64,000 nucleotides of DNA from Paraspadella gotoi (GCA_051294375.1 CM119269.1:12432790-12496789); one strand, 5' to 3'; counted from the stretch's first letter, positions 41,254 through 64,000 are shown. Notes: generated by a model not told the origin, from the sequence alone. Numbers and translations are program-made.

Positions 41254-41784
41254 CCAGTCGTGGGCGTGGCTGCCGATGCCGGCGCCGCCCGACACCCGAC
41301 GACGCGAAAACCGCGCAGACGTTCTCGCATCAAAGATACTTTTCGGCATATTTTTCCCTTTAAAAGAAAAGACTTTAATAGTATATTCGCGAAGCAAAAT
41401 AACTATTACTACAGTAGAAGTAAACGCCAAAAGGACTCGGCGGTGGCGAGGTCTTTTCATTCTCGAGTCTCCGCCATTTTGTTCTCAGTTCGATCTATGG
41501 ATAAGTTTTTGGCGCCCTCTTTGTTTAAGGTTAAGAGTCACAGAACTGAGGAATTTAGGATAGCAGAAAGTAATTTGTTTCGAATGTAACCCTTGAGATT
41601 GTTTTTTTTTTTTTTTTGGCTGCAGACGTAGCGTTTAAAGTTTGGTCTAAGCTTGATCGATTACATACCTTCGAGATTAACGATTATTATTCGCATTCCC
41701 TTTATTTAATTTTTCTTCGCGCTTAAACTTTTTCAAAATTTTCTTCAGATTTAATTTTTATTTTTATACAAACATTTTGTCAAA

Positions 41785-44700
41785 ATGCGCGAGTGTATCT
41801 CCGTTCACGTTGGACAGGCGGGCGTCCAGATGGGAAACGCCTGTTGGGAACTTTATTGCTTGGAACACGGCATTCAGCCTGACGGCCAGGTGAGATTCTT
41901 GTTATAAGTTACGCCTTCTCCCTTTTCTTTGCTTAAGAGCTTTCCTTTTTAGATGCCATCGGACAAATCCGTCGGAGTCTCCGACGATTCTTTCAACACT
42001 TTCTTCAGCGAGACTGGCTCTGGCAAGCACGTTCCGCGCGCCATCTTCGTCGACTTGGAGCCGACCGTGGTCGATGAAGTCAGGACTGGTACTTACAGGC
42101 AGTTGTATCACCCGGAACAGTTGATTACCGGGAAAGAGGACGCTGCAAATAATTATGCAAGGTGAAACTTAGTTAAATTATCTATATTTTTTAAATAAAT
42201 AGTTGTCCAACCGTTAACCGGCTTTTCTGCTTTCAGAGGTCATTACACCATTGGGAAGGAAGTCGTTGATGTCGTGCTCGATCGAGTCCGCAAGTTATCA
42301 GACCAATGCACTGGCCTTCAAGGTTTCTTGATCTTTCATTCCTTCGGCGGTGGGACCGGTTCCGGTTTTACCTCGCTGCTTATGGAGAAGTAAATAAATT
42401 CTCGAGTTTCCTTCTAGTCCATTTTGGTTTGGATTTTAAATTCATGGCCAAAAATTTCTTAGGCTTTCCGTCGATTACGGCAAAAAGTCTAAACTGGAGT
42501 TCGCCATTTACCCGGCTCCGCAAGTCTCGACAGCCGTGGTCGAGCCTTACAACTCTGTCCTCACCACCCACACGACCCTGGAACATTCCGACTGCGCCTT
42601 CATGGTCGACAACGAGGCTATCTACGACATTTGCCGGTGAGGGCTGCTCCTCTCAAATGTTTGGCTTAATTTTAAAATTATGATGATACAACGACGGTCT
42701 TCGGATTTCTCCCTAACGAAAGGGAAGTTGTCGACAATCTCGCTTAAACCCAGCTCTCTGATGATTTACATATTTTTTATTTAATTAAACATTGGTAGAA
42801 AGGGTCGTAAACATAATTTTTTTTGTCCTTCAGTCGCAACCTGGACATCGATCGTCCCTCGTATACGAACCTCAATCGCCTCATTGGTCAAATCGTTTCC
42901 TCAATCACGGCTTCGCTCAGATTCGATGGAGCGTTGAACGTCGATCTCACTGAATTTCAGACTAACTTGGTCAGTCGATTTTACTATTTTCCCCCTTTTG
43001 TTCGTGAGTTTAATTAAAGCAAATTATTATAGGTCCCCTATCCGCGAATCCATTTTCCCCTGGCTACTTACGCCCCCGTGATCTCGGTAGAGAAGGCTTA
43101 TCACGAGCAGCTCACTGTCGGTGAGATATCCAACTCCTGCTTCGAACCCTCCAATCAGGTTCGTCTAAAAGAATATTAAAATGTTTAGAAAATTTTTTTC
43201 CTGTTTGACTCAATTTAAATTTTGGCCTCTTATGCCGAATTAGATGGTGAAGTGCGACCCTCGCCACGGGAAATACATGGCGTGCTGCCTCCTCTATCGC
43301 GGCGACGTTGTGCCCAAGGATGTGAACGCCGCCATTGCCGCCATCAAAACGAAACGGACTATTCAGTTCGTTGACTGGTGCCCCACCGGCTTCAAGGTGA
43401 ATTTAACTTTCAAAAATCTATTTTAAGGCTCCTCTTACAAAGGCAATGTCATCGATCCAGTCGGTGCCGTTGTAAGAAAAAGAGGGATAGCAAATCCGAG
43501 TTTCTTTTGTTCGAGTTGCCAACAGCCTTGGCAATTCTTAAGAGATTCGGCACACGTACACATTGATGTTAATCAGTTATTTTACAAAATAGTGTAGTGC
43601 GGGGTAATACGTAACACTTTTAGAAGTATTCAAATTTTTCACATAGTAAATTTATTTAAAGAAAAAAATTATGGTGCTACATCTAGAAAAGTCCCCGCTA
43701 CAGGTTGACGTATTCGTTTTTATCATGCGGCCCTTAGGGCCCCATTTTTCAAAAAGTTGAAGTGTTATATTTTAAATATTACATATTACAAACGAACAAT
43801 ATTATTTGGAGCATAGCCTATCATTAATGTTTTATGTATAAACAATTTTAAATCTTACATTTTTAAATGGGCAAAAAATTTTTTTAATACTATGTTCTCA
43901 CTTTTGCAAAATTATTGAATGACAATAAATACAAATTTTGTATATATTTTTTGATTTGTAGTAGTTTTAATAAAGTTTATTATTTCTTTTCATTCCGGAA
44001 TATCGTCCCCCTATTTCTTTTTAATTTATATTGGTTTTTTTTCCATTTTTTATTTCTACTGTTTTTTCTTATTTTTTTATTTATTTTTTAAAATTGCCTT
44101 TTATTTCCTTTTCCAAATTTTTATATTAATTTCATATTAATTTTGTCTTAAACTGATTTTTTAACCATATTTAGGTGTTAATTTCTATTCCAAACTTTTG
44201 TATATTTTTTTTGCTAAAAGTTAATTTTTTACTTTAACATTAATGGTATAATAATTTTTTTGGCCTAATTATTTAACAACTGTTGCTAACTGTTATCAAT
44301 ACTTAGTTAATTATTACTAACACGTTATAAAAAGCATGTGAGGTAACACAAAATATTACTATACAGGTGTTCCGTTTACTACAATTAAATTGAAGCTATA
44401 GATGTAAAAAATAATAGACTTATTTTTTCGAAATAATCTATTCAATTACTAAAAATTACTAGTCTCGTCTATATTAATATTCCATAATCATATTACGTCA
44501 AATATGATTGTCAGAGGATAACGACTACTCAGACGAAATTTGACTAGCAGCGTTGAAATTGCTGCTGCAGATGCTGCAGCAGCAGCGCAATGCTTTAACT
44601 TTAATAATGGAACGTCAAGTTGATAAAATATTTAATGCACCAAAAGAAATTATCAAATATCTTTGACACAAAATGAAATTAAAAAAATGTTTAGTGTTCC

Positions 44701-45067
44701 GAATTACCCTGTTCCAAATTACCCCGCACTACCCTACAACTTTTAGTCATTGCTTAACCTGTTCACTCAGGTCGGCATCAACTATCAACCTCCGACCGTG
44801 GTCCCTGGCGGAGATTTGGCCAAAGTTCAGCGCGCAGTTTGCATGTTGAGCAACACTACCGCCATCGCGGAAGCTTGGGCTCGACTCGACCATAAGTTCG
44901 ATCTGATGTACGCCAAGCGCGCCTTCGTCCACTGGTATGTGGGCGAGGGGATGGAGGAGGGAGAGTTCACGGAAGCGAGGGAGGATCTCGCCGCTTTAGA
45001 AAAGGACTACGAGGAAGTTGGGGTCGACTCTGCCGACGCCGAAGCCGATGATGGGGAGGAGTATTGA
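41785..45067 (+). CDS. TUBA: Alpha-tubulin (8 exons; K40 and C-terminal EEY present)
   Basis: [37 protein letters not shown], ..EADDGEEY*. Confidence 0.97.
42680..42761 (+). ncRNA. Dual-guide C/D snoRNA (LSU equivalents of yeast Cm2959 and Cm2948; SNORD35/snR73-like and snR69-like)
   Basis: Box C ATGATGA, D' CGGA, D CTGA; guides acgacggtct and taaacccagctc complement the conserved LSU GAGCUGGGUUUAGACCGUCGU; both fit the D+5 rule. Confidence 0.85.
43429..43557 (+). ncRNA. Intronic H/ACA snoRNA
   Basis: Hairpin tcttacaa/ttgtaaga, H box ATAGCA, hairpin ccgagttt/agattcgg, ACA+3. Confidence 0.65.
43592..44734. mobile_element. Non-autonomous DNA transposon (TA target-site duplication, Tc1/mariner-type)
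   Basis: Terminal inverted repeats gtgtagtgcggggtaat / attaccccgcactaccc with TA on both sides. Confidence 0.75.
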
Positions 45068-62178: not shown

Positions 62179-63092
62179 ATGGGAGAGAAAAAAGGACTTC
62201 AAGCTGTGCAGGTTTTCGGGCGGAAGAAGACGGCAACCGCCGTCGCTCACTGCAAGAGAGGAAACGGGCTCTTGAAGGTAAGTCGCGATTATCTTTTGCG
62301 CGACTTTTGACTTGTAATTAAAAATATTAATACGTTTATTGATTAAAAAGGTTAATGGTCGACCTCTTCATCTCGTCGAACCCACAACTTTGAGATCCAA
62401 ACTCGAAGAACCCGTCTTGTTGCTGGGAAAGGATAGGTAATTGCGTTCGGCTTAGCCAGTTGGATGTATTTTCAATCTTTATTCTCACATTTCATGTCGT
62501 TTCAGATTCGCGGCCGTTGACATCAAAGTTCGCGTCAAGGGAGGTGGTCACGTCGCCCAGGTTTACGGTAAGTTCTCATTCTACTCGTTCCCTTTCCTTT
62601 TCTGGTCAAGGTACCTGGATGATCTCGTTCAAATGATCTTCTCGGCATTTAGACCAGATAAATAAAACCGACCCGAAAACCCTGCTCGGCGGAGATTTTC
62701 GTATCGCCGAGTTTCATTTATCGTTAGGGTTACAAATATTTTCTCATATTGACGTAGCATTATTATTATTTAGTCATTAAATAATACTACCTCATTTATA
62801 TCTCGCTTTCCCTCACTTCAGCCATCCGCCAGGCGATTTCCAAATCCCTCGTCGCCTATTATCAAAAATACGTGGACGAGGCGTCAAAGAAGGAGATTAA
62901 AGACATCCTCATCTCTTATGACCGATCTCTTCTCGTCGCCGACCCGAGGTCACTCCGTCACATCAAATTCTTTTTATTTATTTTTAATCTATTCTAATAT
63001 TTTTTTTATTTTTTTGTTCTTTTAGGCGAAACGAACCGAAGAAATTCGGTGGTCCCGGCGCTCGCGCTCGTTACCAAAAGTCCTACCGTTAA
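62179..63092 (+). CDS. RPS16: 40S ribosomal protein S16 (uS9), 5 exons
   Basis: [56 protein letters not shown]. Confidence 0.97.
62601..62737 (+). ncRNA. Intronic H/ACA snoRNA
   Basis: Hairpin tctggtc/gaccaga, H box AGATAA, hairpin accc..ctcggcg/cgccgag..gggt, ACA+3. Confidence 0.7.
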
Positions 63093-63622
63093 CTCTTTCA
63101 TTTTTGTTTAGTTGCTACTTCATTTCCCAAGTTTGACCCTTTTGACGAATTTACATTGAAACGTTCTTCCGTTTTTCATCTAGAACCTTTCATTTTCTTC
63201 CAATAACCTCAGATACCCCAATCCCAAATTTTCTGGATTTAAAAACTGGACAAATTGCCAGAAATCCTAAGTCACCGACTCGCTTTAGATTAAATTGGGA
63301 GAAAGAAACTTGTTTCGCTCGAATATTTCTCTCTCCTGCTAAAAATGTTTGAAAAGTATTAGATTCCATTGATAGCATTGTTTAGAATACTTTCCTCTTG
63401 ATCATTGTTCCATTTTGTATCCTTTTATAATTCAATATAGTTTTAAAGAGAACACCCGAGCGATTCCACCAATTGGCGTTTTGTTCCTCATCGAGCGAAT
63501 CGGAGTCCGTAACTCATTTAAAACCCCGCCGCTCTTTGATTTTACTACTACAAAGGTTCGCAAAGACTTCATAGTATTTTTCTAAAATGATATTTGTTAA
63601 TAAGTTAATCTTTTTAGACAAG

Positions 63623-64000
63623 ATGTCCGGTGGCCTCGAAGTTCTCGCGTTGAAGGAGGAGGACGTGGTCAAGTTCCTGGCTTGCTCCGCTCACCTGGGA
63701 GCCAACCAGAGCGACTTTCAGGTAAGTTCATTCATTTCTCATTTAATATATTGGTTTTAAAATGCTATGTTTCTTTTTAACGTAGATGGAACAGTATTGT
63801 TACAAACGAAAAGCGGACGGACAATACATCATCAACCTGAAGAAGCTTTGGGAGAAGCTGCTTCTTGCTGCCAGAGCGATTGCTGCCATTGAAAATCCCG
63901 GTGAGAAATTTACAAATACCATTAATCCCTAGCTCATTGTTTTGCTCGGTGCATTCGGACTTTTCCACCGTTTCTTTTTAGCTGACGTCTGCGTCATCTC
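63623..64000 (+). CDS. RPSA: 40S ribosomal protein SA (uS2/p40), 5' part; continues beyond the window
   Basis: [78 protein letters not shown]. Confidence 0.96.

Follow-up and report, generated by a model that had tools for sequence, protein, structure and literature searches.

A putative nine-gene spliced-leader operon of Paraspadella gotoi whose EF1A genes carry candidate readthrough tails predicted to stall the ribosome

We analysed a stretch of 64,000 nucleotides (nt) from Paraspadella gotoi (GCA_051294375.1 CM119269.1:12432790-12496789; hereafter the window, meaning the whole stretch), in which nine genes lie on the plus strand from 38183 to 64000: EF1A-1, alpha-tubulin, RPL3, RPS21, EF1A-2, RPS18, RPL10, RPS16 and RPSA. 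With a probability of roughly 0.8, we read this cluster as an operon that would be resolved into single-gene messages by spliced-leader (SL) trans-splicing, and whose EF1A genes are followed by in-frame tails that would be translated by stop-codon readthrough and are predicted to stall the ribosome. The SL-resolved operon is an already known feature of the phylum to which the window adds a large example, and as a large, function-coherent one the cluster could serve to study SL processing where a 3' end would lie almost directly against the next acceptor. The tail belongs to EF1A, one of the most abundant and best-studied proteins, and its conservation across distant animals makes it matter more than the operon; if the arrest is true, the tail would represent a feedback loop, so far unrecognised, acting on the main elongation factor of the cell.

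In-frame tails behind EF1A genes

The two longest spacers of the cluster are those behind the EF1A genes, and each holds an extension of the EF1A reading frame past its stop codon. Behind EF1A-1 (41254..41589, plus strand) TGA-C is followed by 111 in-frame codons from 41254 to 41586 with HRTEEFRI at 41539-41562, and behind EF1A-2 (58790..58945, plus strand) TGA-C is followed by 51 in-frame codons from 58790 to 58942 with HRTEVFRI at 58919-58942, right before the second stop. Related loci came from a scan with a clade-specific EF1A segment, of which the best 79 of 292 confirmed loci, from 18 of the 64 parts of the collection, were used; setting aside 4 without a C-terminus and 3 duplicates left 72 contigs in the tail set. 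A quick tree, built without EF1A-1 (frameshifted) and without contigs that had fewer than 300 residues or no C-terminus, placed five contigs (L001-L005) with the window's EF1A-2 in a six-row clade with a support of 100, and the tail is present in four of these five contigs. Comparing the six chaetognath-clade tails, we found that five motif codons vary synonymously only, that one position differs between E and V, and that AGG ATA is fixed.

Across the full tail set, 44 of the 72 contigs keep the EF1A frame open for at least 40 codons past the stop, and the two remaining frames are open to that length in 6 and 3, a motif-blind difference whose Wilcoxon p-value (p=1.7e-8) is optimistic in that the contigs are related and the counts not independent. 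The pattern HR[KT]xxxR, which was picked after the data had been seen, occurs in frame in 40 of the 72, with no intervening stop codon in any of them, and in the two other frames in 1 and 0, while the most shared 4-mer, HRKE, is found in 26 contigs in frame and in at most 6 off frame. Control genes gave in-frame runs past the stop of 11, 8, 47, 24 and 37 codons, none with the motif. Turning to the 35 non-chaetognath rows, the distance from stop to motif ranges from 20 to 105 codons, a second stop follows within five codons of the motif in 24 (one at a contig end), two motif positions draw on the full set of six Arg codons, and AGG encodes the last Arg in 28. The stop itself is TGA in 27 of these 35 rows with the motif versus 15 of the 38 scored by that pattern as lacking it, and H, R and R are invariant in 37 of 37 aligned tails, the rows having been selected for the motif. 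Two kinds of variant were also seen: in L011 (after 1126) the motif lies one base off frame in a tail that is open from the stop nonetheless, through an indel or a frameshift, and L044 and L069 carry an 84-codon tail with a divergent HVRRK.

A representative search returned 44 matches, 35 of them new, with the motif in 34 of the 35 and a repeat protein (P0446) as the exception. The chaetognath form of the tail is linked to the common form by LSIWLLR in L005 together with the intermediate P0444. The motif also appears in a cuttlefish EF1A model and in hypothetical open reading frames (ORFs) of two ants and one wasp, which may belong to EF1A loci. Among 10 motif loci, L051 falls into a 90% cluster with EF1A from fish and turtle, L033 into one with mosquito and flea, and L052 into one with wasp. 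Taken by their sequences, these tails are likely to be ancient and shared by distant animals. Neither window tail returned a Pfam family, and the tail profile returned no solved-structure match at E up to 10. Literature searches with motif strings and with EF1A readthrough, a scope outside which most subscription papers fall, including the original AMD1 report, found no paper naming the motif, and the term EF1A is absent from the main text and two of the three supplementary files of PMC5100048.

Because mRNA-like contigs that retain the stop show no break in the frame between it and the motif, we consider it highly probable that the tail is translated in frame by stop-codon readthrough. A tail reached instead by alternative splicing round the stop, through an edited stop codon or through an independent ORF further downstream is quite unlikely; while the predicted proteins P0328, P0335, P0336 and the cuttlefish P0341 do fuse EF1A to the tail with the stop region skipped, and some tails contain an ATG of their own, all 40 of the 40 in-frame cases are open throughout and retain a stop codon, with TGA, TAA and TAG each represented, and neither splicing nor re-initiation would require a fully open frame between stop and motif. 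Still less probable, to the point of being hardly credible, is a motif that acts as an RNA element of the 3' untranslated region (UTR) with an incidental frame. Such an element would fit the fixation of AGG at the codon level (and of ATA in chaetognaths), yet the use of six Arg codons at two positions in the 35 rows, the synonymous variation elsewhere and a frame tied to EF1A in 40 of 41 motif matches all speak against it.

Several observations count against a conserved readthrough tail and should be set beside those above. The EF1A-1 tail can be read without interruption in a second frame as well, and this gene copy has frameshifts in the assembly, L002 lacks the tail motif within the very clade of the window gene, and 32 of the 72 contigs are without the motif, 15 of them with at least 300 nt of UTR. 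A C directly follows the stop in six of six chaetognath-clade tails but in only 11 of the 35 others, and no folded RNA element past the stop was found in any of the six tails (z -0.9 to +1.0).

We give slightly better than even odds to the further claim that the translated tail acts by stalling ribosomes, that is, by nascent-peptide arrest. The fit to arrest of the AMD1 type comes from the variable length, the conservation at the far end, the fixed codon and the nearby second stop. The AMD1 arrest core is reported to consist of Arg121, Phe124 and Arg125 (PMC13025110), and the two systems share an extension whose frame stays open for tens to about 120 codons, conservation just before the second stop, and, in the common EF1A form, an R-x-x-F-R spacing equal to that of Arg121/Phe124/Arg125. 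Beyond this spacing no sequence homology to AMD1 has been shown and the Lys sits one residue closer, and the chaetognath form, R-x-x-x-F-R, has F-R shifted by one residue from the AMD1 spacing, which weighs against the comparison. The AMD1 tail has been described for vertebrates, whereas the EF1A tail, for which stalling is a prediction, occurs in insect-like, mollusc, fish-like and chaetognath-like rows.

A second point of comparison lies within the gene family itself, since stall peaks 3' of EEF1A2 have been reported in human and mouse, with conservation upstream and, in the portion of the report drawn on here, no motif common to stall sites (PMC13025110). The likeness to this EEF1A2 trailer peak, whose sequence may be homologous to the motif, extends to the same gene family, an extended translon and conservation upstream of the stall site; the difference is that the peak concerns mammals with a vertebrate alignment only (PMC13025110). 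The rival view of what readthrough would yield is a longer EF1A, released with a function of its own (a hydrophobic stretch with a basic tip) and with no arrest. We hold this to be unlikely: many tails do have a hydrophobic, Trp-containing segment ahead of the basic motif, but a distance of 20-105 codons from stop to motif, conservation confined to the last ~20 residues, and a fixed AGG with a nearby second stop argue against it, the fixed codon and the near second stop fitting an event on the ribosome.

Under nascent-peptide arrest, ribosomes would read through the UGA-C of EF1A and come to a halt close to the second stop, on the H-R-x-E-x-x-R(AGG) core, and this arrest would limit EF1A output per mRNA, as has been proposed for AMD1. 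The widest form of this proposal is tentative, and we place it a little short of even: a bilaterian-wide EF1A arrest peptide (insects, molluscs, fish, arrow worms) on which ribosomes would stall at H-R-K-E-F-R-R(AGG) and queue into the coding sequence (CDS), capping EF1A output in a feedback loop and explaining the EEF1A2 3' stall, with the arrow-worm tail lying inside the spacers of a translation operon. The EF1A tail supplies the exact residues and the AGG codon to mutate, and it makes the question raised by the AMD1 work testable in fly, fish and cell-free systems, namely whether other readthrough stalls (EEF1A2) are functional and peptide-driven.

Spliced-leader acceptors and the operon

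SL trans-splicing and operons are established in chaetognaths. Spliced leaders of 36 nt are known from two species, trans-spliced genes in Spadella include 78 ribosomal-protein genes, EF1A and alpha-tubulin, and in the RPS14-PCNA operon of Spadella cephaloptera the poly(A) site lies 3 nt from the acceptor, as given in the sections of PMC2481426 used here. SL genes have been placed within the 5S cluster (PMC2566580, in the part consulted), and the portion of PMC12460157 that concerns Paraspadella gotoi reports about half of the genes as trans-spliced, 18% in operons and a longest operon of nine genes. The nearest EF1A relatives are marine sequences. The window's last RPS18 exon has Spadella cephaloptera as its best named match (96% identity), and on this one named match together with the leader match in relatives described below, the sequence most likely comes from a chaetognath.

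Searching the 79 EF1A contigs, we found that the published SL2 3' end opens three (L001, L002 and L004), all within the EF1A-2 clade; the SL end reads TTTGTTTAAA, and no leader was seen at the start of L003 or L005. Multiple DNA alignment of the 5' ends was poor, and pairwise alignments against 2000 shuffles were used instead. In L001 the first 8 bases after SL2 equal the window bases after 52727, and its UTR alignment was equalled by 0 of 2000 shuffles; in L004 the UTR after the leader aligns to the window after 38086, again with 0 of 2000 shuffles as good, while for the four other pairings of post-leader UTRs with window sites 49-438 of 2000 shuffles did as well. These leader and UTR matches indicate that in relatives the SL joins at the positions corresponding to 52727 and 38086. 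A leader exon shared among genes and cis-spliced from upstream had also been considered and was dropped, the relatives carrying the published SL instead.

The preliminary description had proposed SL acceptors 5-50 nt ahead of six start codons, and all six AGs are present, at distances of 5-48 nt. They lie on the plus strand before alpha-tubulin (41727..41748, TTCAG/ATTT, 36 nt from the ATG; 6.3 bits, rank 3 of 30 spacer AGs), RPL3 (45327..45348, CACAG/ATTA, 27 nt; 5.5 bits), EF1A-2 (52706..52727, CATAG/GAAGCATT, 48 nt; a weak matrix score with the match to the SL2 junction of L001), RPS18 (59272..59293, TTCAG/ATTT, 39 nt; 9.3 bits, rank 1 of 16), RPL10 (60744..60765, AGCAG/ATTT, 25 nt; 6.2 bits, rank 1 of 14) and RPSA (63596..63617, TTTAG/ACAAG, 5 nt; a weak site of 1.6 bits compared with 4.0 at 63604). 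That first reading had overlooked two further plus-strand sites, a likely acceptor before RPS21 (51172..51193, CACCAG/TCGC; 6.7 bits, rank 1 of 4) and a likely SL acceptor that would end the outron before EF1A-1 (38065..38086, TTACAG/GGCG; 10.1 bits, with the UTR match of L004).

Scored with a matrix built on the cluster's 50 cis introns, an AG of at least 4 bits stands in the 60 nt before the ATG in 7 of 8 downstream genes. Such an AG is present in 49 of 185 windows placed within introns (p=0.0006) and in 13 of 38 placed farther upstream in these spacers (p=0.003). Five of the eight genes have such an AG at 5 bits and four of the eight at 5.5 bits, the latter compared with 29 of 185 intronic windows (p=0.025) and 7 of 38 spacer windows (p=0.043). 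The sequence CAG/ATT, reported earlier at four of the six sites and found there, marks 4 of 8 downstream genes and only 2 among the 50 cis acceptors (Fisher p=0.002, for a motif picked from these very sites). Individual sites are less distinctive, and this tells against them: 52727 scores -0.6 bits, equalled or bettered by 60% of 470 intron-internal AGs, 63617 scores 1.6 bits, equalled or bettered by 35% of them, and only two of the six named sites outscore every other AG in their own spacer. The SL junction seen in relatives covers 52727, the lowest-scoring site of the matrix, and the relatives' data concern EF1A genes only. Nor was an SL RNA gene or SL tail found within the window, a further point on the negative side.

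Cis introns in the 5' UTR had been offered at the outset as the alternative, and it has proved weak; in its full form, a promoter for each gene with the AGs closing short cis introns, we regard it as very improbable. Donor-like sites do occur in the spacers, at 41530 (6.8 bits), 63556 (6.4), 59080 (5.3), 62010 (5.3) and 60666 (5.2). No spacer, however, holds a donor that reaches 7.3 bits, the lower-quartile score among true donors, and the 95th percentile for intron-internal GTs is 5.7; the gtatgt reported near 59206 is present at 59207 and scores at most 2.6 bits, and the spacer before 52727 has no donor above 0.1. Among the 15 spliced RNA joints listed for 44500-52780 (24 more exist), none leads in cis into 45349, 51194 or 52728. 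The spacers also lack the CpG-rich, TCT-like stretch found ahead of the first gene (37540..37800, plus strand), a candidate single promoter with 11.9 CpG per 100 nt as opposed to 3.0-4.9 across the eight spacers. This stretch contains CCTCTTT at 37771, which we take to be TCT-like, and the heptamer occurs in none of the eight spacers. AATAAA upstream of the acceptor is missing from all eight spacers as well.

RNA contigs of this species were compared over 44500-52780 only, in four of the five runs that hold parts of the cluster; these runs (X1, X2, X3 and X5) were counted as holding RNA on the strength of the spliced joints seen in them, though none is recorded as RNA. The picture they give of the AGs is divided. 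Contigs of X1 are unbroken over 44908-45525, 51058-51331 and 52498-52780, and so span 45348, 51193 and 52727: one spliced contig leads from tubulin across 45348 into RPL3, a second from the last RPL3 exon through two non-coding joints into the exon with the RPS21 start, and a third runs unbroken across 52727 from RPS21 to EF1A-2. Among the 21 loose ends listed in the interval (397 more exist), none shows a leader at an acceptor. Both observations run counter to the simplest expectation for an SL and are what uncut RNA would give as well, but they do not decide the matter. Short leader tips can be pruned in contig assembly, and unspliced RNA or DNA at a depth of 5-6 could supply the X1 bridges across the AGs. 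On the other side, contigs of X3 and X5 (one study, depth ~10) fall short of both AGs: those of X3 reach 45341 and 52629, leaving 7 nt to 45348 and 98 nt to 52727, and those of X5 reach 45317 and 52667, leaving 31 and 60 nt. We treat these stops just short of the AGs as a weak hint that upstream mRNAs end there, which would fit the 3-nt gap of the Spadella RPS14-PCNA operon. X3 and X5 cover the 3' ends of tubulin and RPS21 and leave RPL3 uncovered, a gap that was not used as evidence.

The X1 contigs raise the alternative that the mature RNA is mostly polycistronic, cis-spliced and left uncut at least from RPL3 to RPS21, with re-initiation or only partial SL addition. We judge it improbable. 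It draws on the similar depth (1192, 999, 1085, 521) of the X1 contigs that bridge tubulin-RPL3, RPL3-RPS21 and RPS21-EF1A-2, and on the spacers being without AATAAA. Against it, each X1 contig carries a single flat depth figure, and a contig over two genes is no proof of one molecule; the X3 and X5 contigs end before the AGs; the relatives' EF1A mRNAs start with the SL at homologous sites; and none of five such contigs examined contains a second plus-strand gene.

Weighing these lines together, we consider it very probable that the nine-gene cluster is an operon resolved by the SL. The earlier proposal of SL acceptors is thereby supported, indirectly for this species, through the SLs and operons known from chaetognaths, the SL2 leader of relatives at the homologues of 52727 and 38086, and the weakness of the cis donors. 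Transcription would start from one promoter near 37770 and yield a single precursor of the nine genes, which SL joining at the AG before each start codon would cut into single-gene mRNAs, with the upstream 3' ends formed near the next acceptor. The cluster resembles published chaetognath SL-resolved operons in its same-strand housekeeping and ribosomal-protein genes, in an acceptor right before the start codon, in an upstream 3' end apparently near the next acceptor, and in the SL2 leader of relatives. Counting nine cistrons or more, as it does not close before the window ends, it matches or may exceed the longest published operon (nine genes), and it differs from published ones in consisting almost wholly of translation genes, in its two EF1A copies, in its many intronic small nucleolar RNAs (snoRNAs) and in CDS-to-CDS spacers of about 300-540 nt where unspliced. 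In spliced RNA, the distance from stop to next ATG is ~230-540 nt across the cluster.

Gene models, snoRNAs and other features of the window

No opposite-strand gene was seen within 38183-64000. The cis introns of the gene models are GT-AG in 50 of 50 cases, and 14 of their joints are present in RNA contigs. All nine models lie on the plus strand. EF1A-1 (38183..41253) has 10 exons and frameshifting indels relative to EF1A-2 (52776..58789), which is intact with 9 exons and 474 amino acids; the two are 88.5% identical, with 7 gap openings (13 bases) that disrupt the frame, and the frameshifts reflect either an assembly error or a decaying copy. Parts of their introns (39537-39906 and 56526-56893) are 96% identical, which suggests recent conversion. 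Alpha-tubulin (41785..45067) is intact with 8 exons. RPS18 (59333..60452) has 3 exons, and its 5' UTR contains a start-stop element, ATG TAA, at 59299-59304, just past the acceptor; RPS18 relatives (154 amino acids; several in P0205-P0222) sit on metatranscriptome-type contigs of 1.6-2.5 kb, with room for a neighbour gene. RPL10 (60791..61872) has 4 exons, RPS16 (62179..63092) has 5 exons and an acceptor at 62132 or 62160, and RPSA (63623..64000) is truncated by the window end.

RPL3 and RPS21 have spliced introns past their stop codons, an arrangement that would invite nonsense-mediated decay in other animals. RPL3 (45376..48157) has 10 coding exons and a donor 3 nt past the stop, with the post-stop region spliced over 48158-51059. 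Between RPL3 and the exon beginning at 51059, joints in X1 include a 57-nt non-coding exon (50939..50995, plus strand), a decayed copy of the last RPL3 exon; 47904-48072 and 50804-50968 match at 89%, as a tandem duplicate of a C/D-box-like intron stretch and the last RPL3 exon. RPS21 (51233..51684) is encoded in 2 exons, and its 3' UTR contains three introns that are spliced, at 51708-51922, 51952-52231 and 52282-52497 (spliced region 51685-52498, with junctions ~23, 52 and 102 nt downstream of the stop). The post-stop introns of both genes contain snoRNA-like sequences.

By its sequence matches, the putative operon is also a host of snoRNAs. Intronic matches lie at 39645-39836, 43430-43557, 45567-45638, 46306-46388, 47301-47435, 51349-51447, 52000-52109 and 56632-56823, with the labels SNORA73 (twice), SNORA38, SNORD36, U83, SNORA9, SNORD14 and SNORA26, of which only SNORD36 exceeds its gathering score; more C/D-box-like stretches occur at 42680, 47904, 50804, 52363 and 61088. 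Weak Twister-P5 ribozyme matches (E 0.32, below gathering) at 18496-18538, 18772-18814 and 49182-49224 belong to a dispersed repeat with very high depth in run X1. Judged by eye, scattered exons at ~5200-35000 presumably belong to a gene for a multi-CUB-domain membrane protein, a long open frame at ~14000-16289 has what we take to be BTB-like and CCCH-zinc-finger-like parts, and a minus-strand frame at 9608-10528 appears to be integrase-like.

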